Virus record (IMG/VR): IMGVR_UViG_3300045988_134250
Length of the DNA stretch: 64,000 nt
Strand: one strand, 5' to 3'
Origin: a virus
Taxonomy: Duplodnaviria; Heunggongvirae; Uroviricota; Caudoviricetes
The translations under genes were made by a program, and so were the position numbers. Below are positions 499 to 52,548 of the stretch, piece by piece. Below the pieces are notes generated by a model, which saw nothing but the letters and a program-made list of their open reading frames with translations, did not search any database and was not told where the DNA came from. Position 1 is the stretch's first letter; each line of letters opens with the position of its first letter.

Positions 499-567
499 CT
501 GATCTCATGTCTCACCATTTGTGTTAGAAAATACATATTAATTATCTAACACAAATGGGTGCATTTT

Positions 568-1221
568 CTATCCTTTCTTGAAATCGAAGTTGCCAGCAGT
601 GGCCTGAAAGGTTCCTCCTGCCTTGAAAGCTATGTCTCCGTTAGCGGTGACAGCAATATTTTCCCCTTTAACATTGATGTTGTTGGTTGATTTGACGTTA
701 ACACTCCCTCCTGCATTCACGATTACATCAGCCGGACCAATGATATATATCTGCCCGGACTCATTCATGCCAATCCTTGAGCCTGCTGCCGTATTGGCAA
801 TTTCATAGCCGCCACCAGCAGTTCGTACTTCAAGAATATTGTTGCGGTGAATAACGAAGTCTTTCGTTGCTGAGATTTGGGGGCGGGGAGGTGCTCCATC
901 TACTTCCGGCGGCGTCCAGCCGTTGCCTTTGCCAGATGCTTCTGGTGCAACGTTTGGAATTCCTCCCGGTGCATCCTGAGCGGCACCAACTATCATTGGG
1001 CGTCTGGTGTCTATTCGACCGTTAACATCTAAATAAGGAAACTCTACCCAGACCAGGTCACCTTTGACTGTGGGTACAAAAGCGTTTCCGATGGGTAACA
1101 GGTATTCCGCCCAGGGTAGATCGTCATCAGGAACGCCATTCCAGTCAGGTAAAACACGGACTTGAGCACGCATAAGCCCTGCCGGGTGCACAGTTCCAAC
1201 AATTTGCGCTCTACGCTTCAT
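568..1221 (-). CDS. Putative phage structural protein with Gly/Asn-rich beta-helix-like C-terminus (baseplate or tail-spike-like)
   Basis: 217 aa ORF; repetitive GGxVNV / NINVKGENIAV segments; start overlaps stop of upstream gene (1218-1221). Confidence 0.35.
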   Translation of the reverse strand: MKRRAQIVGTVHPAGLMRAQVRVLPDWNGVPDDDLPWAEYLLPIGNAFVPTVKGDLVWVEFPYLDVNGRIDTRRPMIVGAAQDAPGGIPNVAPEASGKGNGWTPPEVDGAPPRPQISATKDFVIHRNNILEVRTAGGGYEIANTAAGSRIGMNESGQIYIIGPADVIVNAGGSVNVKSTNNINVKGENIAVTANGDIAFKAGGTFQATAGNFDFKKG

Positions 1222-2198
1222 TTGTTCGGCACTCCCAATATCATTCGTGTTGTGTAGCCTACGCGGTCTTCAAAGTGCGCAACATTTTTTACTATCAGCT
1301 TACGGGGCATTGATTCATCAATGCGGTTTTCCTGGTCATAGCGGTATACGATAATCTCTATCACCATCCCCGGTTTTATATCAGGATTGCCTGCGACTTC
1401 TATATCCATTTTGGGGACGAGAGACAGCTGCATATTACGAAGAGTTTCCATATCAGAGTCGGATATATAACGCACTGGGAGTGAGCTATCGCCATATTCG
1501 ACGTAGCCATCGGTCATGGAATACCCAACAAAACGATATTGATTCTTTGCTGTTGTCGCATGTTCCTGTTGGAGTAGGCGCATTTTGGACAAAGTGTATT
1601 CTGCTTTAGGGTTATTCCCCTCGTAGGTAAATGATGGCGTTTGCTTCATCAGATCAGCCAGGGTGTAAAAGTTAAATTCCCCCCGGCATACCCAACATAA
1701 TGCACCTTTGTCTCGCGCTATCTCCGAAAGCATTTTTGACGGTTTGTCACCGGCATTCAGATGATATGTAACTGCGCGTTTTAGCACGCTGCTGGTAATT
1801 TTAAGCTTGCCGGAATATGCCTTGAATATAGCGTCTGGTGTTTTGTTGGTATGTAAATTTGTGCGCGGGGAGGGGATCTTAAACCTGCGCACGTCTTCAC
1901 TGACAGCAATAACGGTAACAACATCACCAGCCAGCATTGCAGACGTAACAAAGAAATCTGTTTTAAAAGTGCCTGCATTACCGTTTGGATCGCCCATTTC
2001 AGCCACCAGCGATGCACCGTATTTGGCTTTCCAGTCATCAATTACGGTGCCGGTAGCGTCATGAATTTCCAGTTTTAGCAAAGGGGCTTTGAGGCTGGTT
2101 TTTTCTACATATACTGCGGTAAAAATCCAGTCTCGTGGCACTTTGTTATCGTTAATGAGCACTGACTGTAGAAAATATTGTTGTAACTCCTGGGCCAC
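1218..2198 (-). CDS. Hypothetical phage protein (probable virion or morphogenesis protein)
   Basis: 326 aa ORF in a co-directional block of coupled genes; no recognisable motif. Confidence 0.35.
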   Translation of the reverse strand: MAQELQQYFLQSVLINDNKVPRDWIFTAVYVEKTSLKAPLLKLEIHDATGTVIDDWKAKYGASLVAEMGDPNGNAGTFKTDFFVTSAMLAGDVVTVIAVSEDVRRFKIPSPRTNLHTNKTPDAIFKAYSGKLKITSSVLKRAVTYHLNAGDKPSKMLSEIARDKGALCWVCRGEFNFYTLADLMKQTPSFTYEGNNPKAEYTLSKMRLLQQEHATTAKNQYRFVGYSMTDGYVEYGDSSLPVRYISDSDMETLRNMQLSLVPKMDIEVAGNPDIKPGMVIEIIVYRYDQENRIDESMPRKLIVKNVAHFEDRVGYTTRMILGVPNK

Positions 2199-2201
2199 TT
2201 A

Positions 2202-2969
2202 TCACCCCATAGATATCGAGGTTTCGGTAATAATACGTTTTGCGTCCAACTCCCATGCTGTGATCACGTCTGCAATCACACTTATCGGCGCTTGTGTGGC
2301 ATAAATACGCTCTTCTCCAATTGGTGCTGAAACATCCGTAAAGCCGACTTCTTTGGCATCCTGTATCGAGCAAATCAGCGGGACCGGGACACGAACAAGG
2401 TGAGTGGTTGCTTCAAATTGTGTACCTGTCATCAGGCGAAGCCGTGCGCCCAGCGAATTACACATCAGACTCATGGTCGCTTTATCAGTTGCCATTAACG
2501 TAACGTCATACGTCAGAATGGCCTGGGTGTATTCCAGTTCTGCTAAAGGCATTCCGGTATCCGGTTCGCAAAAACTGGCTACTTTTTTGCGGTCAATCTG
2601 CTGATCATCGTTGATATAATTGATATCCATATTGCGTGAGATATTGACCAGGGGGAGAGCATCCCGGTTAATGTTCTGGTTTTCAGGTTTTCTCCCTTGC
2701 CCGGCATTTGCGCGACGAACTGCTTTAAGAAACTCGATCGCATTGTCGAAACGGGCCACATAGACACGCTCTGCTGGTGGACGATTCAGGAATGACGCAA
2801 AGCGTTTTTCTTCCGGCGCGGGGGCCACCAGTAAGATATCAGAAAAAATGTTGCTGATTAGCGTCGCAAACGCGTTATCCACGTTTTCAAAGCCCGTGGT
2901 CTGGAATTTTCCTGTGCGTGAGGTTTGCCATTCACCTGTTCGCGCCAGGAGGGTTTTATTTGAAGTCAT
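2202..2969 (-). CDS. Hypothetical phage protein
   Basis: 255 aa ORF, same operon, overlaps the upstream gene at 2966-2969. Confidence 0.35.
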   Translation of the reverse strand: MTSNKTLLARTGEWQTSRTGKFQTTGFENVDNAFATLISNIFSDILLVAPAPEEKRFASFLNRPPAERVYVARFDNAIEFLKAVRRANAGQGRKPENQNINRDALPLVNISRNMDINYINDDQQIDRKKVASFCEPDTGMPLAELEYTQAILTYDVTLMATDKATMSLMCNSLGARLRLMTGTQFEATTHLVRVPVPLICSIQDAKEVGFTDVSAPIGEERIYATQAPISVIADVITAWELDAKRIITETSISMG

Positions 2970-3769: not shown

Positions 3770-3919
3770 AGGTCGATCTGTCAGGTATCGAAAGGAAGAT
3801 TTTCTGGAGATTGTGATTTTGGATGAAGGAGGGGGAATTCATAAAATGCACTTGCGCACAGTGCAACGGTGCGCTATAGTTATGGCATTCGGTAATCATC
3901 ACGGAGGATCAAATGACTA

Positions 3920-4292: not shown

Positions 4293-4631
4293 ATGAAACA
4301 GGCAACCAGAAAACCGACGACCGTAGGTGATATCCTGCTGTACGAATACCTGGAGCCGTTAGAGCTGAAGATCAACGAGTTAGCAGAAATACTTCATGTT
4401 CATCGTAACACCGTAAGTGCTCTTGTTAATAATAATCGTAAGCTAACGATGGATATGGCATATCGCCTGGCAAAAGCATTCGATACTTCTGTAGATTTTT
4501 GGATTAATCTTCAGACCGCAGTAGACCTGTGGGAAGTCGAAAATGATATGCGCGTTCAGGAAGAGTTAAGTCGTATCAATACTGCTGAAAAATTTATTTC
4601 TCAGCGGAACCTGAATAAAAAAGCAGCCTGA
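4293..4631 (+). CDS. higA: HigA antitoxin (XRE-type HTH)
   Basis: 112 aa; HTH segment LKINELAEILHVHRNTVSALVNNNRKLTMDMAYRLAKAF; immediately downstream of higB. Confidence 0.8.
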   Translation: MKQATRKPTTVGDILLYEYLEPLELKINELAEILHVHRNTVSALVNNNRKLTMDMAYRLAKAFDTSVDFWINLQTAVDLWEVENDMRVQEELSRINTAEKFISQRNLNKKAA

Positions 4632-4649
4632 TATAGTAAAACACATACA

Positions 4650-5925: not shown

Positions 5926-7119
5926 TTATGCTTTTTTTACATACGCCATAAACATTTTTTCAGCATGTTCTTGTGGCGTTCCTGCCATGACAAGCGCATC
6001 AATAAACGCCTGCTTCTTCAGTGCGAACTGATCGGCCAGGCGTTGCTGAAGCTCCTTGTTTTTCTGTTTCTCACGTTGCAACGCCGCTTCTTTTGCTGCC
6101 GCCCGTTTTTTCTGTGCGTCTGACAACTTTCTGGCCTTGGTCAGTTGGTCACGTAGCTTGTCAATCTTGCCGTTGTCCTTTGCCAGTTTTGTGCTTAAAG
6201 CGGCCTGGCGCTTCTGATAGAGTCTCCATTCTCGCTTGGCAGCGTCAACGTTCGTTTTACTGCTACGATTGCGATTAAACTCCTTCTCGTCTTCTTTTGA
6301 GAAGTGTTTGGTTGTACGGCGGCGATCGTCACCAAATGCAATTTGCGTTGCAGCCTTTTGTAGTGCACGAGCAATACTCATTTGCCAACTTGCGGACTGT
6401 AACCGCGTCATTGAGTGGATCACGTGTTTACAGGCGACGCCTTGTAGCTTAGGGTTACGAACTTTTGGATAGGCGTATTCTTTTGGCGGGGCCAGGGCAA
6501 AGTTACCCGCAGTAGCGATGTAACGATACCAGTATTGATGACGACCACAGTCACAATCGAAAGACACTCGCCCGGCGCACAGTGATTTAGTGATTTTGAG
6601 AGCTGATTTATCGTCTTCTGCGATGTCATCGACCATCTGATCCCATTCTTCAAAGCGTATCCGGACGATATGGTGCTGGTGGACGGATATATCCGATGCT
6701 TCTACGCGGATATTAATCACGTTGTGGCGAAGAGATACGGGGGTAGCTCTTTTGATACCAGATCCGTCATCCACGGCGTTATTTGCACGCTTAATATCGA
6801 TTGCCTGGCTGGATGCCACCAGCTGGGCGTATGTGATGCCAGCCGTCTTGCTGTCATATTTTTCGCGTGTTTTACTCCGTAGCTTTTCGAAACCTTTCAG
6901 GTCGTCTCGCGTGAAGAACGTGCCGCCTTTTTTCTTCCCTAACTTGAGAATATCTTCGGCGGATTTGTTCCTCAGTCTACCTGGCGTCAGCGTCCGGTGA
7001 GCTTGTCGGCGCTTACGGGTTTGTTCTTTCCTGATAAGCTCGAATATACGCGTGAAGTCCTTAGAGGACAGACCGTCAGTGATATAGCGCCCGTCCTGGT
7101 TTTTCAGGAAATCAGGCAT
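5926..7119 (-). CDS. SWIM-type zinc-finger protein with Lys/Arg-rich coiled-coil C-terminus
   Basis: 397 aa; CDCGRHQYWYRY...GVACKHVIH fits CxC...CxH; C-terminal KKRAAAKEAALQREKQKNKELQQRLADQ. Confidence 0.45.
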   Translation of the reverse strand: MPDFLKNQDGRYITDGLSSKDFTRIFELIRKEQTRKRRQAHRTLTPGRLRNKSAEDILKLGKKKGGTFFTRDDLKGFEKLRSKTREKYDSKTAGITYAQLVASSQAIDIKRANNAVDDGSGIKRATPVSLRHNVINIRVEASDISVHQHHIVRIRFEEWDQMVDDIAEDDKSALKITKSLCAGRVSFDCDCGRHQYWYRYIATAGNFALAPPKEYAYPKVRNPKLQGVACKHVIHSMTRLQSASWQMSIARALQKAATQIAFGDDRRRTTKHFSKEDEKEFNRNRSSKTNVDAAKREWRLYQKRQAALSTKLAKDNGKIDKLRDQLTKARKLSDAQKKRAAAKEAALQREKQKNKELQQRLADQFALKKQAFIDALVMAGTPQEHAEKMFMAYVKKA

Positions 7120-7441
7120 TTTCTATCTCCGGTTCCGCGCTTGCGTAATCACGGATCTTGTTCCTCAGCCATGCCACATCAGGAAGAGTTAACGTGGTCC
7201 CTGCGGGCATTTCTTCCATTTCTGACTCATGGCCCACCAGCACCCGGAATACCCAGCGCAAATCTGCATTGCCATACGCCCGGTAGGCTGCAAGGTCTGA
7301 ACGATATACTTCATCAATCTTTATCGTGTACTGGAAATTATCAGAGTGATACTCCGATACCCGCTTAATCATTTCCTGGTGAAACAGCGCACGAAAAATA
7401 TCGTCTTCAATGTACCTGTCGTCGAGTCTGCTATAGCCCAT
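7112..7441 (-). CDS. Hypothetical protein
   Basis: 109 aa ORF overlapping the downstream gene start by 8 nt. Confidence 0.4.
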   Translation of the reverse strand: MGYSRLDDRYIEDDIFRALFHQEMIKRVSEYHSDNFQYTIKIDEVYRSDLAAYRAYGNADLRWVFRVLVGHESEMEEMPAGTTLTLPDVAWLRNKIRDYASAEPEIENA

Positions 7442-7634
7442 AACAAAGCCTCTCAGTCATAACCTGGGGGAAACTGTATGCAGGGTGTGAAATGTGAGAA
7501 ACAGACAGGCCACCAGTTCAGGGGGATGTGGTTCATAAATCCCCTCACTGGTGACAAGTGACTTTCATTAATCTTTGTGCGGGGGCCAGCTTCATTTGCT
7601 GGCATTAGATTAAAAATTAAACGGAGTGAATGAC

Positions 7635-7769
7635 ATGGATGTTATATTCGAATTATTAATGCTAATTGATCTGTTTATGAACGCTTCATTGACCACTCAA
7701 ATACTCGCGTCAATATTTTTGTTACTCTTCTACCTGGTATTGAGGGAGTTAACAAAGCTACTAATGTGA
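7635..7769 (+). CDS. Candidate small hydrophobic peptide (44 aa)
   Basis: Manual translation MDVIFELLMLIDLFMNASLTTQILASIFLLLFYLVLRELTKLLM; GGAG 9 nt upstream of the ATG; below the ORF-track size cut-off. Confidence 0.3.
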   Translation: MDVIFELLMLIDLFMNASLTTQILASIFLLLFYLVLRELTKLLM

Positions 7770-8465
7770 TCAAAGTATCACGGTATCTTCATCAACTTCT
7801 TTCCCAGTCAGCGACTTTGGCTGGGAGGTGCCTGCTTTAACTTTTTCATGCCCAATAATGGACAGGAACGAAGCGAGTATGCCTGTTTTTTGCTCTTTCT
7901 CGACTGTACCGGTCATCTGCTCTACGTAATCCGCACTGGCAACATTGTGGTATACGGTCGCGTAGCAACACAGGATCATCAAAATATGTTCCGGCCTAAT
8001 ATCCTGCCAGTTCACCCGGTAAACTTCTTCTCCGTTACCGTTGTATTCGGTGTCAACGATGGAGTCGGGAATTTCGAAAGCACCTTTATTGTTTTGCGGC
8101 AGGGATAATAGCTTCTGGAGTTTTAGCTCTCTGTATCTTTCCATCCCTACGATGATCGCAGCTCTGCCGTCGGCATGACGTGTCTTGAGTGTTACCTGGC
8201 TTGCTCCGGTGCCAGCGGAGATCGTTGGCGTAATTTCGTCTACCAGCACCTTAAATTTGCTTTTCCGCAGGGCTGCTATAGCTGGAGGAATCTTTTGCTT
8301 TTGTTCCAATGCTGACGCGGGAAGGGGTTTTACTTCGTTAATCACGAGAGCACCGTCTTTCAGTATTGCAGTGAGCATTTGCGGTTTGCTGGTGGTCAGG
8401 CTGAATATTGCTATCTTCTCCATTGTCCTTCCTCCACGGATGACGGATACAAAAAAAGGCCGCAC
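7770..8465 (-). CDS. Hypothetical phage protein (true start may be the internal Met near 8423)
   Basis: 231 aa ORF; a hairpin plus A/T run at 8452-8476 overlaps the annotated start. Confidence 0.4.
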   Translation of the reverse strand: MRPFFVSVIRGGRTMEKIAIFSLTTSKPQMLTAILKDGALVINEVKPLPASALEQKQKIPPAIAALRKSKFKVLVDEITPTISAGTGASQVTLKTRHADGRAAIIVGMERYRELKLQKLLSLPQNNKGAFEIPDSIVDTEYNGNGEEVYRVNWQDIRPEHILMILCCYATVYHNVASADYVEQMTGTVEKEQKTGILASFLSIIGHEKVKAGTSQPKSLTGKEVDEDTVIL

Positions 8466-8691
8466 ATGGCGGCCTGCTTTGGCGTTATGACTCCCTACCG
8501 CGCTTCGGCTGAAAGTTAATCGTCAAAAGAACCTTCAACGGGAGCCGTTAGCGCGATGGATTATGTGCAGTTTGTGATTTCCAAAATAGTGTCAACCACT
8601 TTTTGTGGATTTTATTTTTTGACCGAAATTTGGCCTAAATCATGTTGATGTAGTTGATTGTTTTTGTAACATAAAACTTCATTTTGTTTAC

Positions 8692-11252: not shown

Positions 11253-12063
11253 ATTGGCAGCCTCCTTTGACTAAGTTAAGGAGCTACCGCGTGAGGTTCC
11301 AATCTCAATGGCGGTAGCACTGACTGGGTTGGAACTACCGGCGTCAAAGGGAACCGGCCTGCCTTTCGGCAGCCCAGCCAGCACTACCATTGATCTCTGA
11401 GCTAAACGCTAAGTATGGCTGTGCGATGGCATGACACAAAAAAAGACGCGTTCGGCGTCTGTGTCGCCTTTGACATTATCCGGGGTTCCAATCCCGGCAC
11501 CCGTTTTTCTAAGGTGCCGTAGAAATATACCCCACGATAATGCCAGGGCGCAACAGTCAGTATTTTATGCTTTGGCGGATTTCTTCCTGACTTGCTTGCA
11601 GGCGTAGGCCATTGCTTTAGCTTTCACTTCATCCAGCTTCCCGGTGATCACTTCTTTTCCGAGAGTGACAAACCAGTCATAGCAACCGCCAGTAATGTTC
11701 TTGATTTGAAAGTTGAGGTAGCGAACAGTCATTTTGACACCCCCGGCGCGAGCAAAGAATGCAGATTATCGCGTGAGTGGTGGAAGACGAGTGATGGGAA
11801 AAGACTGTAGTTGTTCATAGTGTTGTGACTCCTTGCTTTCGGAGCCGCCATCGACTGTTCCACGGTCTGGTGGCGGCGCAATAAAGGCTGGAACACCGTG
11901 AGTCAACGGGGGCTTTTCAGCCACCTATATTGCACCGCCATAGGTATGGCGGAGGCAATAATACGAAAAACTAAACAGTTTGTCTCAAAAAGTTGACCGG
12001 TGTGCCAATCGGTAGTGAATGTACATCGGAGAGTTTTTCAATTCAACTTAAAATGTTAGAAAA

Positions 12064-12642
12064 CTAATTTATCAACTCAATCGCCATCTGATACAACGTC
12101 ATTTCATCGGCATTGTGCCGCATGAAATCTGCTTTTCCGCCTATTTTTCCGTCAGCATGAACAGGGACCAGCCAGGGATATTGTTCTCTGACCTCGGCTG
12201 GCGCTGCGTACTGGTGGTGCCATTTACACAAAGGGAGGACATATTTATGCGCGTTCTCTGCCGTTCTCCCGAAGATATGGTGCAGGGATACCACTGGGCT
12301 ATGTTGCCCGTGAATATGGCAGGCAATGCAGGGGAGAGCACCGATAGCGGTCTGTATCCGGCGTTCATCGGCTGTGAGTGATCTGCCTTTCAGGCCGCGT
12401 GACGTGCGTGTTTTTTTGGACGGAGCGGATACAGCTTTATCTTTTCTCCGCTGTTCATATTGCTTTGCTTTTTCAATTTTCTTTTGCCGATATTCAGGCG
12501 ATGCGGCTTTTTCTCTCGCTCGCTGCTGCTGGCGTTGAGCTTGTTGAAGGCGCTTTGCCCTTTGTTCCTCTCGCCAGGCCGGGTCAGCCAATTTTTGCAT
12601 GGCTTTTTGTCTCTGTTTCTCCCAATAACTCTGTTTCTGCAT
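12064..12642 (-). CDS. ref: Ref-like HNH endonuclease (recombination enhancement function family)
   Basis: 192 aa; Lys/Arg/Gln-rich N-terminus then CIACHIHGQHSPVVSLHHIFGR...LPLCKWHH, an HNH-type Cys/His cluster as in P1 Ref. Confidence 0.65.
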   Translation of the reverse strand: MQKQSYWEKQRQKAMQKLADPAWREEQRAKRLQQAQRQQQRAREKAASPEYRQKKIEKAKQYEQRRKDKAVSAPSKKTRTSRGLKGRSLTADERRIQTAIGALPCIACHIHGQHSPVVSLHHIFGRTAENAHKYVLPLCKWHHQYAAPAEVREQYPWLVPVHADGKIGGKADFMRHNADEMTLYQMAIELIN

Positions 12643-12914
12643 GATGGCAGTCTCTTACTTTTCAACGATTTTTCTATGATTGATCAAAATGGTTAGATAT
12701 TCAAAATTGATTTTCTAACACAAAACATTAATATCATTCCTGATAACTGTTTGGAGGACATGATGCTTATAGCTTTAAGTGCGATCCACCAGCCATCTGT
12801 GAATGAGATTGGCCTGTTCTATGTGTTGTTTTTCGGGGCGTTGGCGCTACTTGAGCTTGGTATTGAGCTTTTCGCAGTGCTTATGTTTTGCGTCACGATT
12901 CTGGGGAAATTTTG

Positions 12915-15386: not shown

Positions 15387-16075
15387 CCCAGGCTCTGCAT
15401 GAAGTGAATTTATATAGCCGTATTGATGGTTCTGGCTATAGAAACATATGGGTTGTTGGTGATCTGCATGGTTGCTACACCAGACTGATGTCCGAACTCC
15501 ATCGTGTGGATTTTGACCCGGCGCAGGATTTACTGATATCGGTTGGCGACCTTATCGATCGCGGTACTGAAAATGTCGAATGTCTGGAACTATTGCAGAT
15601 GCCCTGGTTCAGGGCAGTAATGGGGAACCATGAGCGGTTGATGCTTGATGCGTTAAGTCCTGATGGCAACGTGAATAACTGGCTAATGAATGGCGGACAA
15701 TGGTTCTTCATGCTGGACACTGATCAGGAAATATTAGCCAAGGCGCTGGTGGAGCTGGTAAAGCGTCTGCCATATATCATTGAGTTGAACACCGGGCATG
15801 AAACTATCGTTATAGCCCATGCCGACTATCCAGGTGGAGAGTACCAGTTCGGTAAGGATGTGTCGCTTTTTGATGTTGTCTGGTCGCGCAGTCGCGTCGG
15901 TGATTCGATAGATGGCATTGGTGGAGAAATCACAGGCGCAGATCGCTTTATCTTTGGGCACACACCGGTACGAAGACCAAAAGCATACTGGAATCAGCAC
16001 TACATAGACACGGGCGCGGTTTTTAGCGGAAATCTGACGCTAATGCAGGTGAAGGGAGGGCAGCTTAAAGTCTGA
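15383..16075 (+). CDS. Ser/Thr protein phosphatase, lambda-PPase / calcineurin-like metallophosphoesterase
   Basis: 230 aa; GDLHGCY, GDLIDRG and GNHE motifs; equivalent of the P1 ppp-type gene. Confidence 0.8.
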
Positions 16076-16173
16076 TCAAATCATTTACGCACTCAAAATT
16101 ACGTTAGAACATTGATTTTAGTTTTCTAACATATTATTTTACCGATCGGAACAAAACAGAGTCGGTATGCATT

Positions 16174-29260: not shown

Positions 29261-29333
29261 AGCACCCTCCTAAATAGGCGAGGGTACTTTACAGCAAAGG
29301 CGTTAATCTAAAAAGATGTGTTAGAAATTTAAT

Positions 29334-30362
29334 TTACGAATCCATCAGGCGGCTATTAGCCCCCACAGACACGCCGCCACGGCGAAGATACCGCATAAGT
29401 GTTTCCGGTTTCTTCCAGGTTCCTTCCTGCATGATCTCCACCATAGACACCTGCTTTTCAGCCATATCAATAGCGGCCCCGACGCGTGCACTATGCCCGG
29501 TCCACGTCCGGTATCTTCCTTTGTTTGGCGTAGCATCTCTTTTATTCAGCAACACCCAGGCGTCGCTGAATATTTTCTCCATTGCAGGTGCAGTAAGGGG
29601 CGTTGTCGTGATCCTGGCCTTATTGCTACGGTGTATCGGCGGGAACAGCACTGCGTCAGGATGTTCGCGAAGCCCGGAAACATCCAGCCAGTCATTCAGC
29701 ACAGCGGTAGTGCGACGGGAAAGCACCTTATCAAGCCCGGCGGCGGTCGTTATTGTCTTCGTGTGTGAAATATGTAGCGTGACAGTGTCACCTGTTTGAT
29801 CCAGATCTCCTACACGAATACGCGAGATTTCCGACATACGCATCAGCGTATTGTATGCAACAAAGAGAAAAGCCCGGTTGCGCAGGTCCACCAGCCGTTC
29901 TGACCTGGACAACAGGACGTCGAGCAGTTTCAGATCGTCCCACCGAAGCGGTATAGCCTGGCCTGTTCGTTCGCCTTTTTCAGTTGCCGCTTCGCGCCGG
30001 ATGCGCCGCATAGCCAGAGAAACACTTTTATCATCCGAAAGTGGCGGAAGGCCACAATGCGAAAGCAGCATATTCAGCATGGCGTAGTGCTTATCAATGG
30101 TGGTCGAAGCCAGATCGGCATCATGCAGCTGAAGAAAATACTCGCGGGCCATTTCTGGTGAGATCGGAAACCAGGCAAGCTGGCGAGCGTGACACCAGCG
30201 CGCCCATGAATGAAACACCAACCGGAGGTCGCGCAGAGTATTCGGCGCATAAGCCCCCTGGTCATTCATGAACCGCATAAAGTTTTCTGCGGCCTCCTGG
30301 TACTCTTTGCCAATGTTGCGCAGAAAACCACCGGAGCTGCCAGAGATAATTAATTCACTCAT
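29334..30362 (-). CDS. dre: Tyrosine site-specific recombinase, Cre family (Dre-type)
   Basis: 342 aa; aligns along its length with recalled Cre (NLAFL.IAYNTLLR, WSGHSARVGAA.DMA); rox-type 32 bp site lies about 150 bp upstream. Confidence 0.85.
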   Translation of the reverse strand: MSELIISGSSGGFLRNIGKEYQEAAENFMRFMNDQGAYAPNTLRDLRLVFHSWARWCHARQLAWFPISPEMAREYFLQLHDADLASTTIDKHYAMLNMLLSHCGLPPLSDDKSVSLAMRRIRREAATEKGERTGQAIPLRWDDLKLLDVLLSRSERLVDLRNRAFLFVAYNTLMRMSEISRIRVGDLDQTGDTVTLHISHTKTITTAAGLDKVLSRRTTAVLNDWLDVSGLREHPDAVLFPPIHRSNKARITTTPLTAPAMEKIFSDAWVLLNKRDATPNKGRYRTWTGHSARVGAAIDMAEKQVSMVEIMQEGTWKKPETLMRYLRRGGVSVGANSRLMDS

Positions 30363-30546: not shown

Positions 30547-30756
30547 TAAAATGGCGATTTTTTTTAATCCATCACAGATTGATTCTGACCAGTAACACGT
30601 TGCCTTCATGGTCTTTAATTTGCGAAGCGTGGTTTATACAGTTGGTTTTCTAAATTTGATGACAAAAAATCACAGTTCGATCCTTTACTCACTCTGTTAT
30701 TCGACATAAATTTGTCATAGTAATTTTATGTTAGAAAACTAAATCGAGTAGGAATA

Positions 30757-31794
30757 ATGAGTAAGAAGTCGATCGAGAAAGAGTACAAACGGTTCCTGCA
30801 AACCGCTGAACGGTGGAAAGAGCTGGTGGTCGCAAACTCTGTTTTCCATGATACCAGTTATGCTGGCGAGGAATTCCGCCATGTTGCATTAACGCATGAC
30901 CAAAACATATTAGAAGAAGCTGAAAAATGTCTTGCTGAATGGAAAGCCTTCGTTGACATGTGCCGCGATGCCGACGGCAAAGCGTCGAACATTGTTGAGT
31001 CTGTATATTCTCCGATCCCATTCATCATTGAGGACACCAATCAAAGCACGCATGTTGTTGTGCAAAGCGCTACAACAACACGTACATTTACACGTGAACA
31101 ATTGCTCAAAAAATACGACAAAATCATAAAGAAAAGCCTGAAAAATAGGGTTTTTTCTCAAATCGTAGGTGCTCTTGAAGAAGAACAGCGCTTCTTTGAA
31201 GCTGAGCCTGAAGGCGAGATCTACCGGGCGCGTAAAGAGGCATATACAGATGTTGTGCTGACAACAAACATCGAAGGCAGCAATGCCCTTTCTCGCTTTA
31301 GAGTTGGCGCACATGGCGCATTGGTTTTCGCAAGACTACCGAAGACAACGATCCCCGTTGTCAATAATGTTGGTGAGCGCCGGAGCATTACAATTTATTC
31401 TGGCGTCGAATCGGTACCTTGCAGCCTTCTCGGCGATTTTAACTTATATCGTGTTCGTGACCTGGAAAAACACCAGCCAAGCTACGTTGCGAAGTCGTAC
31501 ATCTTAAGGAACATCGATATTCGCAATGAAAGCCTTAAGCAGAAATCCGCTAAGATGCTGGAGGATGCCGATCCGGCTATTCGCCATATCATTGAGCGTA
31601 AGATACGTACATCACGTGAAGCAATGGCAAGGCTGGATAAAATGGATCTGGAATTGTTAGACGTAATGATGGCCTCTGGAGACGACCTGACCGGCATAAA
31701 ACTGAATGAAGCTCGTAAAAAATACGGCAAAGCAATCGAAGAACGTTACGGATACACATTCCCCCAAACGCAGTACGCCGCGAAGCTCTGGTAA
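30757..31794 (+). CDS. Hypothetical protein divergent from dre, in the position c1 occupies in P1; candidate regulator
   Basis: 345 aa; TGTTAGAAAA site about 20 nt upstream of its start; no similarity to recalled P1 C1. Confidence 0.45.
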   Translation: MSKKSIEKEYKRFLQTAERWKELVVANSVFHDTSYAGEEFRHVALTHDQNILEEAEKCLAEWKAFVDMCRDADGKASNIVESVYSPIPFIIEDTNQSTHVVVQSATTTRTFTREQLLKKYDKIIKKSLKNRVFSQIVGALEEEQRFFEAEPEGEIYRARKEAYTDVVLTTNIEGSNALSRFRVGAHGALVFARLPKTTIPVVNNVGERRSITIYSGVESVPCSLLGDFNLYRVRDLEKHQPSYVAKSYILRNIDIRNESLKQKSAKMLEDADPAIRHIIERKIRTSREAMARLDKMDLELLDVMMASGDDLTGIKLNEARKKYGKAIEERYGYTFPQTQYAAKLW

Positions 31795-31821
31795 TCACAA
31801 CCGGCCCCGCATCGCGGGGCT

Positions 31822-35083: not shown

Positions 35084-35191
35084 TAATCCCCCGGGCAGGA
35101 AATGACCGAGGGGATGATAATGAGAATGTTAAAACTGTATAGACTGGTAAAAAGATGAATATGTTAGAAAATTAATACTAAATATCTAATG

Positions 35192-36602: not shown

Positions 36603-36678
36603 AACCAAATGTGGTGGCCCCTACCGGACTTGAACCGGTGACCGTGCGATTATGAGTCGCCCGCTCTAACCACTGAGC
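36603..36678 (-). tRNA. tRNA-Ile2-type (anticodon CAU; ileX-like)
   Basis: GGCCCTTTAGCTCAGTGGTTAGAGCGGGCGACTCATAATCGC...GGTTCAAGTCCGGTAGGGGCCACCA; near-identical to recalled E. coli ileX; encoded CCA. Confidence 0.8.
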
Positions 36679-37116
36679 TAAAGGGCCAGATTACTGTTAA
36701 TTACGCTTACGCTTTTTGCCAGAACCGCGTAAGGCTTTTGCCGCTTGCTCTACCCCGTATGCAACCACCAGCAGAAACAATAATGTCCACTCCGGGTTTT
36801 TATCGGCAAACGCCCAAAAATCCATCACTTGCAGCCACCTTTTAAGACAAAACGCCATTGCTGTTAGGTTGCGGTGCCGGGCGCCTCCCGGTGACGTTAA
36901 CCAGTTAACAATTAACGCCGGATCACTTATGGATTCTCGTTACGCCAGTAAAAAGACCACCTTTACTGTTTTAACTGTTCCGCGTGCGCTTAGCCGCATT
37001 CACCGCAATGGTAAGAGCATTTGGCTGACTGGGCGGCGATGACGCCTGTACGCATTTGGTGATCCGGTTCTGCTTCCGGCATTCGCTTAATTAGCCAAAT
37101 ACCCTTAATGTTGCAC

Positions 37117-37203
37117 TGGCGGAGAGTAATGGAATCGAACCATCATCGCTTGCGCAATGGGACGGTTTTCAAGACCGCTTGAGCACCATGCTCCCTACTC
37201 TCC
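37117..37203 (-). tRNA. tRNA-Ser (anticodon UGA), type II with long variable arm; atypical D-arm
   Basis: 7-bp acceptor GGAGAGT/ACTCTCC, anticodon stem-loop CGGTCTTGAAAACCG as in E. coli serT, T-arm GATGG-TTCGATT-CCATT, discriminator G, CCA. Confidence 0.6.
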
Positions 37204-37338
37204 CGTTATTGTGGCGACCGGTGCTGATCTCCGGCTTGCGGTTATTTCAGACTCTCACGGGCGTTTAATTGCCCCGCCGAACAGCTCTTTTCCGCAATAG
37301 CTGCAATGTCTTTCGCGCATCAGCCTGCGCATTCACCA

Positions 37339-37428
37339 CAATGTTGAGAACACTGGTTGTCACGCTGCAACGCAACATTTATTCGTAGATTGGGATATGA
37401 CCCCGTTACGCCAGTGTTCTCAACGTTG
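37339..37428 (-). repeat. Long hairpin element (18-bp stem, one mismatch) next to a degenerate tRNA 3'-end remnant
   Basis: caatgttgagaacactgg ... ccagtgttctcaacgttg; followed by gtgccggtta, which resembles the tRNA-Thr 3' end. Confidence 0.5.
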
Positions 37429-37575
37429 TAGTGCCGGTTACGGTTCCGGCCAGACCTCTTCCTCAACGGGGTGTTCTCCATACGGACTACCGTTTATTGG
37501 TCGTTCCTGCGGTTTATGTTGTGAAGCCAGATGCTTATCTTCTGGTTGCTTCAAAGAGCTGCACTTCATCACAAC

Positions 37576-37649
37576 GGTAAGAGCATTTATGGCTCGCATC
37601 GCGGGAAAAAGCCCACGGTAGAGAGTCGAACTCTACAAATGCTCTTACC
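37576..37649 (-). repeat. Long hairpin element (13-bp perfect stem, 48-nt loop) directly 3' of tRNA-Thr
   Basis: ggtaagagcattt ... aaatgctcttacc; the same 13-mer ggtaagagcattt recurs at 37012. Confidence 0.5.
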
Positions 37650-37657
37650 TGTTGTGT

Positions 37658-37733
37658 TGGTGCCGGTTAACGGGATCGAACCGCTGACCATTCGCTTACA
37701 AAGCGACTGCTCTACCAACTGAGCTAAACCGGC
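37658..37733 (-). tRNA. tRNA-Thr (anticodon UGU)
   Basis: GCCGGTTTAGCTCAGTTGGTAGAGCAGTCGCTTTGTAAGCGA...AGCGGTTCGATCCCGTTAACCGGCACCA; folds canonically. Confidence 0.8.
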
Positions 37734-37737
37734 AATT

Positions 37738-37824
37738 TGGTGGGGAGTGATGGAGTCGAACCACCCGAGTCGCAATGACAGTAGATTTACAGTCTACCCC
37801 GCTACCCCTACGGACTAACTCCCC
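37738..37824 (-). tRNA. tRNA-Tyr (anticodon GUA), long variable arm
   Basis: Acceptor GGGGAGT/ACTCCCC, anticodon arm GTAGA-CTGTAAA-TCTAC, T-arm GGTGG-TTCGACT-CCATC, CCA. Confidence 0.65.
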
Positions 37825-37829
37825 TAAAT

Positions 37830-37904
37830 TGGCGATGGTGGGTGGATTCGAACCACCGACCAGTTGGTTAACAGCCAACTGCTCTACCGCTGAGCTACAC
37901 CATC
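37830..37904 (-). tRNA. tRNA-Asn (anticodon GUU)
   Basis: GATGGTGTAGCTCAGCGGTAGAGCAGTTGGCTGTTAACCAACTGG...GGTGGTTCGAATCCACCCACCATCGCCA; acceptor GATGGTG/CACCATC. Confidence 0.75.
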
Positions 37905-39139
37905 ACTTGCCGGGTACGTCTCCGGCGAGGGCTTCCACCTCCGTATGCTTTTCGGCGCACCGCGCCCTGGCTGCAATTCGGTAACAGGGGATGCACAACC
38001 CTGGCTTCCAGCGTGATTAGCGCCTTCAGCATGACGGGATATACCCGTTACAAGAAGTTCTCCCAGGATGCCATTAAGCAATGGCTGTTACGCGGGAAGG
38101 ACGCAACAGGTAAGGGCGCTGACCAGAAAGACCTGACCCTTCTCATTCATCTGGTTAATCACACCAGCGCCCTTGCCTGTTATGCCTCCCCGTTCCCTAA
38201 TACACAGACGGGGACACTCTGCGGTCGATTTTTTTGACGGGGGACGACTCATACCCCGTGGCGTCTGGCTTCTTAGCCCGCTACCATCATCAGATCATCG
38301 TTTGCATTTACTTTAATGGTCAGTTTCTAAACCGCCGCAAAGTCGCTAACCATGACGAAAACCCTAAAAAAGCCCACCCGAAGATGGGCAAATACGCTAC
38401 ATCTCACACAAGAAAGAAGCCGACTGCCTGAGCTGGATTCACTTTCAAATGCCCGCTGAAAGGGATCACAAGTCGGCTTCTTTCTTGATGCGGCACTCTC
38501 TCCGCCCGTCACCGCTCTGTCTCGGTTGTCGCGTTTGCCACGCCAGCCGTAACGAGGTTTAAAGTCTTTACACGTTTCCATCACTCGACTGCCGTCTGTG
38601 GCTGTTCGTTGCAGCGGGGGTGCCTCCCCCTGGGGATATCCCCGGCCTTACCCCATTCTTTCAAGACACAATGCAAGGCCACATCCGCATAGGTGCATTA
38701 CCGCAACATTAAGGAGACTCAGGGCAAAAGGTAACCGCCACAAAAATCCCTATGCCTCCTTAATGTTGAAGATGTGCATTGATGATTAGATGCAGCATGT
38801 ACCGTTACTCTCTGCCGGACCATCATCAATGAACACCTTAAAAAGACCTTCCGTGGCTCAACATGTATTGTCGTTTACTCCGCAAAGTGCTCTCTCTGAA
38901 ACCACTTTCCGCACTAAACCTGCTGAACTTTGGCCTGCACGGTGCCAAAGCGTGCTCTTGCATTACTATACATTTCTAACACTTTAATTTGTTAAATGCT
39001 GGTGGGCGAACAATAACCAATAAGTGACTATCAAGCCCAGCAAGCGAAACGTGGGTACCGCCCACCAGCAAGGAAAATTCTATGTTAAGTTATCTTCACA
39101 ATCAATACATTCGAATTGTGATTTTAGATTTCTAACACA

Positions 39140-40348: not shown

Positions 40349-40425
40349 TGCTATTCCCGTTACTTTGTTAAATTATTTTTCTAACATATTTTATTAGTTT
40401 GATGACAGTATCGAAAGATGCAATA

Positions 40426-40972: not shown

Positions 40973-41467
40973 TTAATCAAGACAAACATACTCCGTGATA
41001 GCTTTTATGGCTTCAGCGGCACTGCGCGCCTCAAAGCAGTAGTAACCGGCTTCTGTGAGGCGAGTCATCCAGACGAGTTGTTCGGGAGTCAGGCGATTTC
41101 TCCCATGTTTCATCTCAATGCGCATTCCGTGGTATCCCCCACAAGCAAGGTCTATAGAAAGATCGGGATATCCCTTCTTTTGGCCCTCTGCCACCATTTT
41201 TATTGCCGTCCTTATGCCTCGCAGGCCACCGTTTGGAGTGGCGTGAGTATGCTCATACACATAACGCATATTGCGATACATCCAGTCCAGGACGCGAACC
41301 TGCTCGTAATGCTCATGGTTCCTTTTGATTAGATCTGGGTTTTTCTCCAGTTCTCTAAGAGCTGCGGCATGTGGGGATGTTTCAGAATATTCACTACGAC
41401 GCCTTCTCTTTCGCGCTATTTTTCTAACACACCCATTGATAGTAAATATGCGAAATAATAACAACAA
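40973..41467 (-). CDS. VRR-NUC-domain nuclease-like protein with Arg-rich N-terminal extension
   Basis: 164 aa; GYPDLSIDLACGGYHGMRIEMK fits the PD-(D/E)xK VRR-NUC pattern; a GTGTTAGAAAAA site lies inside the annotated N-terminal codons, so the start is uncertain. Confidence 0.5.
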   Translation of the reverse strand: MLLLFRIFTINGCVRKIARKRRRRSEYSETSPHAAALRELEKNPDLIKRNHEHYEQVRVLDWMYRNMRYVYEHTHATPNGGLRGIRTAIKMVAEGQKKGYPDLSIDLACGGYHGMRIEMKHGRNRLTPEQLVWMTRLTEAGYYCFEARSAAEAIKAITEYVCLD

Positions 41468-41603
41468 CGTTAGATTTGTAAAACAAGAGAGATACTACTC
41501 AAGGATGGTCTATATGCAACAGGTCGGATTTGCTTTTAGAGTAAAGAGTGACCTTAATCAACAAGGAGGGTAAATCGCATGGCATTTACCCAACCTGTTA
41601 TTT

Positions 41604-49174: not shown

Positions 49175-49325
49175 AGGATTTCCCCCTCTAAACCGTAAAA
49201 AATTCCGCTATGCGGTACGGTTGAGAGGGTATGGAGAATGTTATTTTCAGGGGGACGATACTACCGTCAAAATCACATACTCCCCATAGTTTGCCTACTT
49301 ATTAACCCATGACCGGGAGAAAAAT

Positions 49326-49835: not shown

Positions 49836-49843
49836 ATCACGCT

Positions 49844-50972: not shown

Positions 50973-51385
50973 AGTTACGGCCTCACTAACAGGTTTAACA
51001 ACCTGCCACCCGCTGTCAAACAGGTGGCAGGACGTGACAGGGTTGACAGACTGGCGTTAGTGAAACCAGCAGGCCGAAGCCTCCCCATCACGCCCCACCA
51101 TAATTCGGGCGTAACGCGGTTTACGGACACAAAAATACCGCAATATCGGAAATCTGCGGTTGTCCGCACTAACATTCAGGCTGTCAAACCCGGTCGCAGA
51201 ATTTGCTACGACGGCATGAATATAAGCCTGAAAACATGGAAGATCAACTAAAAATTTCAGCAATGGATGACTTCAGTCGATGATGCAGATCATACATTCC
51301 GTTTTAGAAACAGCAAATTAATTTTCTAACATAAATAATCGGCCGAGCATTTTCCGATCATTGGGATGTTTTGTAGACACACAGG

Positions 51386-52348
51386 TCATCCCCTAAATCC
51401 CGCAGGGATTGACCAATCCTCACGGTCAAATTCAGACCGATAGCCACGCTGTTTCATCAGGTCAAAGGCTTCACCAATGGTTGCACACCCCTGGGAGCCA
51501 GAATAATCCATTGAGAAATCTAGGGCACTGGATTGTTTAGGCTTATTCACTGCGGTAGCGGCACTACGTATCCATGCAAATTTTTTTGCCAGATTTTCAG
51601 CGGTACGATACAGAGCCTGCCGTTTTGCGTGCCCCTCGTCTGAACGACGCTTTGCAGCTCTCGCTTTTGCCGCCGCCAGGCAGTGGTTGGTATGTTCTTC
51701 CCTGATTACTGGTTTTTTATCCAGTACCCCGTTATCCGTTTGAGAACTATCTGCAGGTGAAGCCTTTGGCTGAACCGCGCATGATCTTTCTCTTCTTTTG
51801 GCTATAGAGTGACTCTTATTTTCTATTGGCTGTTCATTTTGAACATGGGGGGACTTGTTCAATTTGAACAGGGGGTTCCCAGTTTCAAAAAAATAACGAA
51901 CCTTTGAAATCAACTGCTTAACCAGTTTTGTGGCGTTGGCAAATTTGATGCCCTGCTTACCCCCTATCTCCATTGCTACATGAATGAAGTGGAGAAATTG
52001 TGTCGTAAACCGATATACGTTACACACCTGGGCATTGTTATTCGCTACCTGATGTTGCTTAACAAGCATTCCGCACTTCGTCGCTTCAGCAAATGCCCGG
52101 CGCACAGTAGAAATACTGCGTCCTGTAATCTCGGACATATCAGCATATGAGCGACGGATCATGTATTCATCGGTAGACCCTGCCAGGTTGGCGAACTCGG
52201 CAATAATGGCGCTATGTGAAGGGGAAAGAAGACCGCTATGACGAGCAAAAAAACTCAACTGATGACCTTTGATTTTTTTGTGGTATTCAGTGTTGTTTTT
52301 ATACTCAGAAGTGTTGAAAGTTACTGAAACTGAATTTAAAATACTCAC
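51386..52348 (-). CDS. HTH-containing protein with basic C-terminal half; candidate replication or regulatory protein
   Basis: 320 aa; YADMSEITGRSISTVRRAFAEATKCGMLVK; TGTTAGAAA site in its upstream region. Confidence 0.4.
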   Translation of the reverse strand: MSILNSVSVTFNTSEYKNNTEYHKKIKGHQLSFFARHSGLLSPSHSAIIAEFANLAGSTDEYMIRRSYADMSEITGRSISTVRRAFAEATKCGMLVKQHQVANNNAQVCNVYRFTTQFLHFIHVAMEIGGKQGIKFANATKLVKQLISKVRYFFETGNPLFKLNKSPHVQNEQPIENKSHSIAKRRERSCAVQPKASPADSSQTDNGVLDKKPVIREEHTNHCLAAAKARAAKRRSDEGHAKRQALYRTAENLAKKFAWIRSAATAVNKPKQSSALDFSMDYSGSQGCATIGEAFDLMKQRGYRSEFDREDWSIPAGFRG

Positions 52349-52409
52349 CAGATAGTTCCGTGAAAAAATCTATCTACCGTATAAATCTATGGCAGTGGAT
52401 TTATACACC

Positions 52410-52446
52410 CAAAAAGCCGCTGAGAAGCGGCTTTTGCTTTTTTGGC
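52410..52446 (-). terminator. Bidirectional Rho-independent terminator after the protease-like gene
   Basis: aaaagccgc-tgagaa-gcggctttt flanked by A/T runs on both sides. Confidence 0.55.
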
Positions 52447-52548
52447 AGTCGCTACCGGAGCAGTGACCGCGATCCTACTCGATCCCATCCACCAGGATCA
52501 ACAGTGTATATAAATACACTATGTTAGAAATTTAACTTAACAAGGCGA

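Follow-up and report, generated by a model that had tools for sequence, protein, structure and literature searches.

Dispersed asymmetric candidate operators, probably of the D6-type C1 prophage repressor, in a phage-plasmid of the P1 family

Phage P1 carries 22 dispersed operators with the asymmetric 17-bp consensus ATTGCTCTAATAAATTT, by which RepL and Lpa are controlled (PMC8546580). The P1 C1 operators are annotated as monovalent and divalent, and the ImmC operators of P1/P7 comprise Oref, Omat, Ossb, Oc4, OrepL, Orlf, Odmt, Obanab, O26, Oppp, OpmgRa/b, OpmgT, Olpa and Op99. The network is complemented by two accessory proteins, the co-repressor Lxc and the inactivator Coi. The late promoters of P1 are Lpa-dependent and consist of a -22 box (AAGTGACTT), 4 nt and TANNNT. 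Mycobacteriophage L5-type repressors belong to an HTH family and act at dispersed asymmetric 'stoperators'. Tus is a monomer bound to an asymmetric site, and in its fold two alpha+beta domains clamp the DNA through interdomain beta-strands. The tus gene is autoregulated through TerB in its promoter (PMC8707476).

The window, i.e. the whole 64,000-nt stretch of DNA that was analysed, was identified from its sequence as a D6-like phage-plasmid of the P1 family. Phage D6 and plasmid pB2C_96 matched it at 97.8% and 99.9% identity, respectively. The genes dre, rox, c1, pacB, pacA and lpa followed in this order at 29334-35083. At the position equivalent to lxc in P1, no homologue of Lxc was found: the 86-aa ORF downstream of ulx showed no BLASTP similarity to it.

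A recurrent intergenic GTTAGAA/TTCTAAC site had been noted in a preliminary description of this DNA, and its existence was confirmed. The 9-mer TTTCTAACA/TGTTAGAAA gave 13 exact matches on either strand of the window against 0.61 expected from dinucleotide shuffles (highest shuffle count 3), and GTTAGAA gave 16 matches against 6.5 expected. All 13 nine-mers fell within the intervals listed earlier. Two of those intervals were weaker: the one at 30647-30656 was degenerate (7/9), and that at 36535-36558 was an inverted repeat of another kind with short spacing, TGTTAGTAA-N8-TAACA, scoring below 10 bits. The genome-wide weight-matrix search that had been called for, performed with 19 columns, returned 14 sites scoring 14 bits or more in the window against 0.33 in Markov shuffles. 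Together with 3-4 weak sites, about 17 copies were counted across 52 kb. The DNA outside long ORFs made up 11% of the window and held 11 of the 13 cores (binomial P = 2e-9). No copy was found in the 94.8 kb of phage P1 or in 30.5 kb of a Leclercia relative. The two remaining cores were located at 38973, where no genes are annotated in D6, and at 41421, inside the longest pmgM-like ORF, among its first codons.

The conserved unit, taken as a consensus of 26 sites, was an asymmetric 19-mer, TR-TGTTAGAAA-WN-TAAWWT, without internal symmetry. An inverted partner (at least 6/9) was present for five of the 13 cores, always across a spacer of 12 bp and at no other spacing. The paired 9-mers faced outward, and the divalent site spanned 30 bp, versus 28 bp in P1 Obanab. 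The other eight copies were solitary, and the orientation of the sites relative to the downstream gene was mixed. Hence, the earlier wording of a palindromic site, often in inverted pairs, was right only in part, an inverted partner being present for five cores; 'palindromic' was not supported, as the unit itself is asymmetric. The 'dimeric' regulator proposed with it was not supported by an asymmetric 19-mer that mostly occurs singly; the P1 paradigm is also asymmetric, and the C1 model described below resembles the monomeric Tus.

Several copies abutted stop codons (ref, dre, pmgS, repL) and some formed inverted repeats, which would suit a repeat acting at the RNA level in processing or termination, or a selfish or structural DNA repeat without a regulatory protein. 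Such an origin was considered extremely improbable, since the orientation relative to transcription was mixed and solitary copies prevailed. Moreover, poor hairpins are expected because both the 12-bp spacer and the 9-bp arms are A+T-rich, and conservation limited to one 9-mer within diverged flanks is the pattern typical of a protein-binding site.

The candidate operators and neighbouring features are collected in Table 1. Both C4 antisense RNAs (Rfam) of the window, which has two c4-icd-ant modules versus one in P1, were located downstream of a site.

Table 1. Candidate operators in the window, associated features and their P1 parallels.
Feature	Position	Strand	Sequence and score	Setting	P1 parallel
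Divalent operator (candidate)	520..553: 520-538, 535-553	+, -	TGTGTTAGAAAATACATAT, 23.6 bits; TGTGTTAGATAATTAATAT, 22.6 bits	Ends 13 nt ahead of rdgC/hrdC ATG (508, -)	Odmt, upstream of uhr-hrdC-dmt
Weak candidate operator, uncertain	8655..8673	-	TATGTTACAAAAACAATCA, 11.4 bits; equivalent in D6 TATGTTATAAAAATAATCA	mat/simB intergenic region	Omat, for comparison
C4 RNA of module 1	11307-11394	-	Rfam		
Monovalent operator (candidate)	12052..12070	+	25.7 bits	Overlaps ref stop codon; upstream (on - strand) of isrK-like RNA, C4 RNA, icd, anti-repressor module 1	Oc4 ahead of c4-icd-ant; Omat at ref 3' end
Operator (candidate) with weak inverted partner	12691..12722: 12704-12722; 12691-12699	- (operator)	Operator 26.8 bits; partner GGTTAGATA, 7/9, N12	Separates divergent ref (-) and long early operon (+); perfect palindrome in Shigella relative	Oref
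Divalent operator (candidate)	16100..16133: strong arm 16115-16133; weak arm 16100-16118	-, +	25.6 bits; 13.6 bits	41 nt upstream of 331-aa pdcB-like (DUF968) gene (D6 annotation)	
Monovalent operator (candidate)	29317..29335	+	29.2 bits	Overlaps dre stop codon; upstream of orf117-dut operon (-); kept in relatives L008, L010, L011	
Degenerate distal c1 operator (candidate)	30647..30656	-	TTTCTAAAT, 7/9	~100 nt ahead of c1; intact TTTCTAACA sites align with it in contigs with C1 51% and 44% identical	
Proximal c1 operator (candidate)	30727..30745	+	TATGTTAGAAAACTAAATC, 24.9 bits	11 nt ahead of c1 ATG; presumed autoregulatory site	
c1, D6-type prophage repressor gene	30757..31794	+	345 aa	Annotated c1 in AY753669, MF356679	
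lpa	34691-35083	-	PF25716, E = 5e-57 (Pfam scan)	Heads lpa-pacA-pacB	
Operator (candidate) with weak inverted partner	35160..35191: 35160-35178; 35183-35191	+ (operator)	Operator 26.4 bits; partner TATCTAATG	~80 nt upstream of lpa	Olpa
tRNA cluster	36612-37904	-			
Monovalent operator (candidate)	38965..38983	-	18.6 bits	Gene-free DNA upstream of tRNA cluster	Divalent Obanab, heading tRNA-tci-ban operon
Monovalent operator (candidate)	39121..39139	-	26.1 bits	Abuts pmgS stop codon, upstream of tRNA cluster; kept in L008 and L010; Leclercia relative carries own motif there	
Monovalent operator (candidate)	40370..40388	-	27.1 bits	21 nt upstream of pmgS ATG (40348, -)	OpmgRa, OpmgRb
Operator (candidate) with weak site	41413..41485: 41413-41431; 41467-41485	-	19.0 bits; 12.7 bits	Start of pmgM-like VRR-NUC gene; overlapped by promoter-like TTTACA-16-TATTAT	
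Operator (candidate) with inverted partner	51302..51333: operator 51315-51333	-	Operator 28.7 bits; partner TTTCTAAAA, 8/9	Just downstream of repL; upstream of c4-a1b1, C4 RNA, icd, anti-repressor module 2	Orlf right after repL; Oc4 ahead of c4-icd-ant
repL homologue	51386-52348	-		repL annotated in D6	
Monovalent operator (candidate)	52520..52538	+	27.1 bits	~170 nt upstream of repL homologue	OrepL

The positions shared with P1 were c1, lpa, repL (ahead of it and directly behind it), c4-icd-ant, ref (before it and at its 3' end), rdgC/hrdC-dmt, pmgR/S, pmgL/M and the tRNA operon. Further, the unit was asymmetric in both systems, measured 17-19 bp and was A+T-rich towards its 3' end (TAAATTT for P1, TAAWWT for the D6-type site). 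In both, many copies, either monovalent or paired as inverted divalent sites, were scattered over the genome in mixed orientation, and c1 was located beside a recombinase site and pacAB. In contrast, the specificity core TGTTAGAAA was unrelated to TTGCTCTAA of P1; no P1-type core occurred in the window and no D6-type core in P1.

It was also considered that the motif could be a late-promoter element, namely the P1 arrangement of a -10 hexamer and a -22 box read by Lpa. An Lpa homologue is encoded, and in one orientation the 9-bp box is followed after 2 nt by TAAWWT, which superficially resembles the conserved 9-bp box closely preceding a TA...T hexamer in P1 late promoters. However, the spacing in P1 is 4 nt, and the sites preceded early or regulatory genes (c1, repL, ref, the c4-icd-ant modules and lpa itself), structural genes not being targets. 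Just one more site was present in the 32 kb, mostly of structural genes, that the closest plasmid has beyond the window. The D6-type sites thus differed from P1 late promoters in spacing, gene class and orientation rule, the last of which disfavours this reading because a promoter element cannot tolerate mixed orientation. A separate motif, AAATCACAnAC-N4-TAnnnT, had the exact P1 late-promoter architecture and preceded mat, prt, ddrB, gene 7, lydA and the pgh/darB divergent pair. Since structural and lysis genes are preceded by this separate late-promoter-like motif, the late-promoter explanation fails, and its probability was regarded as negligible.

The 345-aa gene, previously suggested as a candidate auto-regulated factor, was identified by sequence and annotation as the D6 c1 repressor gene, with a site directly ahead of its start codon. 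It adjoins rox/dre and pacAB, the same neighbours as in P1. The protein was 21% identical to P1 C1 over 240 aa (E = 2e-8, BLASTP), matched NCBIfam phage_rep_C1 colinearly (E = 9e-6, 25 bits against a cut-off of 500) and had a precomputed Pfam match to PF27008 (Phage_P7_repressor_C1). Judged by these matches, it is a distant member of the P1 C1 family and not an equivalog. Most members of the family have 250-290 aa and match residues 5-245 only, and the D6-type C1 differs from the 283-aa P1 C1 by an extra C-terminal helical part. The core idea of the preliminary description, a dispersed operator network of one regulator, was upheld, the regulon positions matching the annotated C1 operators of P1. 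Its view of a system analogous to P1 and different in sequence was correct as to the cores, but the relation is closer than analogy, C1 being homologous and the regulatory positions the same.

The conservation of the motif was followed across relatives. In a Shigella plasmid with a 70% identical C1, the 9-mer was identical at 90/90 positions and the flanks were 51-57% identical; by this comparison the 9-mer appears to be under purifying selection. Phage D6 itself showed one-base core variants at the lpa and repL sites. The motif was kept at syntenic places where C1 was 51% and 44% identical, and the proximal c1 site was found in every relative with a C1 at least 44% identical. Where C1 was 30% identical, CCTTAGAAT replaced the motif at syntenic places, and at 21% identity (P1) the P1 operator replaced it. 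The motif, as far as these sequences indicate, tracks the c1 clade.

From homology, synteny and co-variation we infer that C1 is the binder of the sites, which are very probably a heteroimmune operator set belonging to the D6-type prophage repressor C1. Operators of some other regulator, either another DNA-binding protein of the phage-plasmid or a host factor, seem unlikely. The link between C1 and the sites is indirect, and the element encodes further DNA-binding proteins, among them two anti-repressors of the Rha/Roi type and HTH proteins of the HigA type. However, the sites trace the same regulon as those of P1 C1, a site lies 11 nt before c1 in all relatives with a C1 at least 44% identical, and the motif changes when, and only when, the c1 clade does, even though these elements also differ in other genes. 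The motif is also not known to resemble host-factor consensus sequences, e.g. those of IHF or LexA.

The predicted fold of the proposed C1 repressor appeared to resemble that of Tus, which was the sole fold match and an unexpected one. The models were of moderate confidence (pLDDT 76-79, pTM 0.46-0.61, shallow alignment). The profile-profile similarity between C1 and Tus was weak but colinear, with P = 3e-4 and 1e-3 in the same register for two disjoint C1 subfamilies; C1 did not match the Tus family PF05472 in the Pfam scan, and the hhalign probability was 8-38% (P = 3e-4 at best). A Tus-like monomer on an asymmetric site would fit the solitary asymmetric operators. TerB is placed 13 nt ahead of the tus ATG, comparable to the 11 nt of the c1 operator, and the sites are alike (TATGTT-GTAA-CTAA in Ter, TATGTT-AGAAAA-CTAA in the c1 operator). 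The Ter core GTTGTAAC was absent from the window, as was any excess over chance of Ter-like sites within 2 mismatches. The roles also differ, transcriptional repression at ~17 sites being proposed here versus polar fork arrest by Tus-Ter. Many scattered copies of a short asymmetric site for one repressor are likewise a feature of L5; however, the C1 family is unrelated to the HTH family of L5, and the L5 sites are one-oriented within transcription units, whereas the D6-type sites are intergenic and of mixed orientation.

We proposed that one C1 molecule would occupy each asymmetric ~19-bp site, with specificity derived from the invariant 9-mer and a smaller contribution from the A+T-rich 3' part. 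Eight operators would be single and five divalent, the latter with inverted, outward-facing 9-mers 12 bp apart. In the plasmid prophage, C1 would bind as a monomer and shut off the sigma-70 promoters of its target units by occlusion; convincing overlapping sigma-70 promoters could be proposed for only some operators, and none clearly for c1. The targets would include lpa, the late-gene activator, by which all late genes would be kept off, the lytic replication gene repL and both c4-icd-anti-repressor modules. Repression would extend to the long early operon, the tRNA operon and the dut operon near dre, as well as to ref, rdgC/hrdC-dmt, pmgR/S/M and the pdcB-like gene, and C1 would autoregulate its own gene through the proximal site. 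The network is, on sequence grounds, of the same design as that of P1 C1 with another specificity rather than homoimmune with P1/P7, and because the 9-mer is completely different from the P1 core ATTGCTCTAAT, the element would be heteroimmune to P1/P7.

The window shared 97.8% identity with Escherichia phage D6 and 99.9% with the E. coli plasmid pB2C_96, and was therefore assigned to the P1 phage-plasmid family as a D6-like member. The 345-aa gene, proposed in the preliminary description as a candidate auto-regulated factor, corresponded to c1, the prophage repressor gene, in the D6 records. Its neighbours were the dre recombinase gene with its rox site at one end and pacB-pacA-lpa at the other. 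The D6-type C1 protein was 21% identical to P1 C1 over 240 residues (E = 2e-8), matched the NCBIfam model phage_rep_C1 colinearly with a score far under its cut-off, and had a precomputed Pfam match to PF27008 (Phage_P7_repressor_C1). No Lxc homologue was found at the P1-equivalent position. About 150 PLSDB plasmids encoded a D6-type C1, and D6-like phage-plasmids were common in E. coli, Salmonella and Shigella.

The 9-mer TTTCTAACA (TGTTAGAAA on the other strand) occurred 13 times in the 64-kb window against 0.61 copies expected from dinucleotide-preserving shuffles, the shuffle maximum being 3, and the 7-mer GTTAGAA occurred 16 times against 6.5 expected. The recurrence noticed earlier was thus confirmed, all 13 nine-mers lying within the intervals first listed. 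A weight-matrix search, suggested there as a check, returned 14 sites of at least 14 bits in the window against 0.33 in Markov shuffles. The claimed intergenic placement also held, since 11 of the 13 cores fell outside long ORFs, that is, in 11% of the window (P = 2e-9).

The copies aligned on the 9-mer gave the consensus T-R-TGTTAGAAA-W-N-T-A-A-W-W-T, an asymmetric unit of ~19 bp; a consensus was also derived from 26 sites by pooling the window with one relative. Five cores had an inverted partner (at least 6 of 9 positions), always 12 bp distant, and no partner was found at other spacings of 4-24 bp. With the remaining eight cores solitary, the site did not prove palindromic as described, and no evidence for a dimeric regulator was obtained. 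Two of the listed intervals were weaker: one held a degenerate copy aligning with intact sites of relatives, and the other a different, short-spaced inverted repeat, related to the core but spaced otherwise than the operators. Separately, Chi (GCTGGTGG) was present 46 times in the window against 1.6 expected, 31 times on the minus and 15 times on the plus strand; the commonest 9-mers in four relatives (L008-L011) also contained Chi.

Coordinates of the candidate operators and associated features
Genome	Feature	Position (strand)	Location or content	P1 counterpart
Window	c1	30757-31794 (+)
Window	Candidate operator	30727	11 nt before c1	Op99 group
Window	Candidate operator	35160	before lpa	Olpa
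Window	Candidate operator	52520-52538 (+)	before repL	OrepL
Window	Candidate operator	51315-51333 (-)	just after repL	Orlf
Window	Candidate operator	520-553	before rdgC/hrdC-dmt	Odmt
Window	Candidate operator	12704	before ref	Oref
Window	Candidate operator	12052	ref 3' end	Omat
Window	Candidate operators	40370, 41413	at pmgR/S/M	OpmgRa/b, Oppp, O26
Window	Candidate operators	38965, 39121	upstream of minus-strand tRNA cluster	divalent Obanab
Window	Degenerate copy	30647-30656
Window	Inverted repeat	36535-36558	TGTTAGTAA-N8-TAACA, directly downstream of tRNA-Met
Window	C4 antisense RNAs	11307-11394 (-), 51020-51105 (-)	immI-type modules
Window	Further module elements	11439-11517 (-), 51173-51225 (-)	immI-type modules
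Window	tRNA genes	36612-37904 (-)	Met, Ser, Thr, Tyr, Asn
Window	Candidate late-promoter motif	8570-8579 (-), 49271-49280 (+), 55285-55294 (-), 59404-59413 (-)
Window	Candidate late-promoter motif, one mismatch	3809-3818 (-), 63169-63178 (-)
Window	Match to P1 late-promoter consensus	7556-7574 (+)	AAGTGACTTTCATTAATCT, gene 26/mat intergenic region
Phage D6 (L002/L005)	lpa operator	4630-4648	core variant TATTAGAAA
Phage D6 (L002/L005)	repL operator	22465-22483	core variant TGTTAGCAA
Phage D6 MF356679 (L002)	tRNA genes	6084-7850 (-, ARAGORN)
Phage D6 MF356679 (L002)	tRNA-Met, unannotated	6084-6159	ARAGORN
Leclercia pE1_003 (L009)	(A-rich)-CCTTAGAAT-CTAT	8084, 9485, 19219, 24332
Leclercia pE1_003 (L009)	Weaker copies	4066, 9152, 27789
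Leclercia pE1_003 (L009)	GATC-containing AGTGATCA cluster	16800-17080	upstream end of, and just before, gene 15781-16983

P1 C1 controls RepL and Lpa among its targets and has 22 dispersed operators with the asymmetric consensus ATTGCTCTAATAAATTT (PMC8546580). The P1 operators and late promoters were extracted from the annotated P1 record, where the operators were 17 bp long, asymmetric, monovalent or divalent, and in either orientation. The sites of the window lay at positions equivalent to those of P1 operators (Table). Rfam detected two C4 antisense RNAs, each with a site before it and icd plus an anti-repressor gene after it, so that the Oc4-c4-icd-ant arrangement of P1 occurred twice. Both immI-type modules were complete, one with C4 and a1b1 targets and the other with C4 and an isrK-like RNA, and their anti-repressors differed; P1 carries a single module of this kind. 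Outside the window, the closest plasmid comprised another 32 kb, mostly structural genes, with one more site, which had the capsid gene on one side and a divergent gene on the other. Hand counts on the consensus sequences left the P1-to-D6 operator alignment ambiguous, with 8/17 matches forward-forward versus 11/17 when the P1 consensus was reverse-complemented and anchored on TTAGAR; only the forward-forward alignment preserved the divalent architecture, with cores outside and the A+T-rich part inside. As for the tRNAs, the genes of phage D6 were placed on the minus strand by ARAGORN, and GenBank lists three on the plus strand.

The sites could also have been late-promoter elements of the P1 type, in which a 9-bp -22 box (AAGTGACTT) is followed by 4 nt and TANNNT. 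However, exactly this architecture was found in a separate motif of the window, AAATCACAnAC-N4-TAnnnT, located before mat, prt, ddrB, gene 7, lydA and the pgh/darB divergent pair. This candidate D6-type late promoter kept the 9+4+6 layout of P1 with a -22 box unlike that of P1, and Lpa was conserved. The TGTTAGAAA sites, by contrast, preceded regulatory and early genes, lpa itself included, in mixed orientation relative to their targets, and are therefore not promoter elements; the late-promoter reading was rejected. The P1 late-promoter consensus itself was matched once in the window. A simple sigma-70 scan revealed no consistent operator-promoter geometry, and promoter-like hexamers overlapped some operators, for example at pmgM, the first c4 module, lpa and the tRNA-proximal site. 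A scheme treating divalent sites as promoters (-35 TTAGAA, -10 TAACAT) was dropped as a rule, as it fitted only lpa, the pdcB-like gene, repL and the first c4 module.

Further, the motif was compared among elements with increasingly distant C1 proteins. A Shigella dysenteriae plasmid (C1 70% identical) carried 13 cores at matching syntenic places, three of them perfect palindromes TGTTAGAAA-N12-TTTCTAACA. Over 10 orthologous sites of this plasmid and the window the 9-mer was identical at 90/90 positions, while the 30-nt flanks were 51-57% and the 3' half 61% identical. In environmental contigs with C1 51% and 44% identical, TGTTAGAAA persisted upstream of c1, lpa and pmgS and also at the 3' end of the recombinase gene. 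The 9-mer was absent from Leclercia plasmid pE1_003 (C1 30% identical), where CCTTAGAAT occupied syntenic operator positions, namely the 3' ends of the recombinase gene and pmgS and the region preceding c1. This motif, spotted by inspection only (four exact and four one-mismatch copies), shared TTAGAA with the core of D6, and TTAGAG with the reverse-complemented P1 operator. P1 (C1 21% identical) had its own operator and no TGTTAGAAA, and the window had no P1 core. The motif was thus kept or replaced in step with C1 identity and follows the c1 clade. Phage D6 showed one-base core variants before lpa and repL, where the window cores were perfect. The GATC-rich, pac-type AGTGATCA repeats that k-mer counting first surfaced in the Leclercia plasmid were rejected as operators; their cluster was likened to the methylation-sensitive hexamers repeated in the P1 pac site.

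On these comparisons, the best-supported reading is that the sites are operators of the D6-type C1 repressor, and the idea of one regulator's operator network governed by the 345-aa gene appeared right in substance, with a regulon map like that of P1. We infer that C1 itself binds the sites, as a monomer, and acts by promoter occlusion. In the prophage, C1 would silence lpa and repL together with both anti-repressor modules and several early operons, and would also regulate its own gene. The D6-type operator set is a heteroimmune version of the P1 C1 regulon. The operators had been called analogous to those of P1 and different in sequence; the difference stood, but the homology of the two C1 proteins indicates a relation of homology beyond analogy. 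No operators were annotated in the D6 GenBank records, and no account of them was found in a literature search, although the D6 genome paper lay outside that search and may already describe them.

No PDB sequence matched C1. With the predicted full-length C1 model, of moderate confidence, Foldseek returned four Tus-Ter entries (E = 6.7e-7 to 2.2e-5, probability 1.00), the next best hit having E > 0.04. Word-indexed protein searches reached the D6-type clade only, and an exhaustive profile search collected 83 family representatives, most of them of 250-290 aa and matching positions 5-245, which makes the C-terminal helices seen in the D6 type an addition. In hhalign, the C1 family aligned with a profile of 80 Enterobacteriaceae Tus proteins (P = 3.4e-4, probability 38%; C1 85-196 with Tus 145-268), versus P = 0.07-0.1 for reversed-sequence controls. 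Short P1-like proteins, taken as a disjoint subfamily, gave P = 1.4e-3 in an unchanged register; a single Tus sequence in place of the profile gave no signal. The sequence-level link to Tus is weak but consistent, and a fold relationship seems plausible, with the case about evenly balanced.

Tus binds as a monomer to asymmetric Ter sites. It is autoregulated through TerB in the tus promoter (PMC8707476). In MG1655, TerB (AATAAGTATGTTGTAACTAAAGT) lay 13 nt before the tus ATG, and an equivalent Ter site preceded tus in 79/79 genomes examined; the c1 operator TATGTTAGAAAACTAAATC lay 11 nt before c1. Operator and Ter had TATGTT and CTAA in common, the operator middle being 2 nt longer, a resemblance that is suggestive only. 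Because of this common frame, the site just upstream of the own gene and the monomeric recognition, we tentatively proposed, with slightly more doubt than confidence, that P1- and D6-type C1 may be structural homologues of Tus, their operators relatives of Ter, and C1-operator complexes possibly orientation-dependent roadblocks. The operators on either side of repL, the site of oriL in P1, were both oriented away from repL; should C1 act as Tus does, they would face forks leaving the lytic origin. This remains speculative, since OrepL and Orlf of P1 are not oriented in this way.

No paper linking C1 and Tus was found in the literature search, and the predicted Tus-like fold is the part likely to surprise specialists. 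Confirmation of this fold would account for a long-known property of P1 C1, its monomeric, asymmetric binding, and would provide a concrete candidate for the origin of Tus-Ter, a system of unsettled ancestry; under the homology proposal, the immunity of phage-plasmids and the replication fork trap of enterobacteria would have a common ancestor. Knowledge of the operators bears on immunity specificity, meaning the pattern of mutual exclusion among elements, on the complete lysogeny-controlled regulon, and on handles to engineer or induce D6-like elements. The comparison presents a P1-type network that retains its wiring while the recognition core is swapped.
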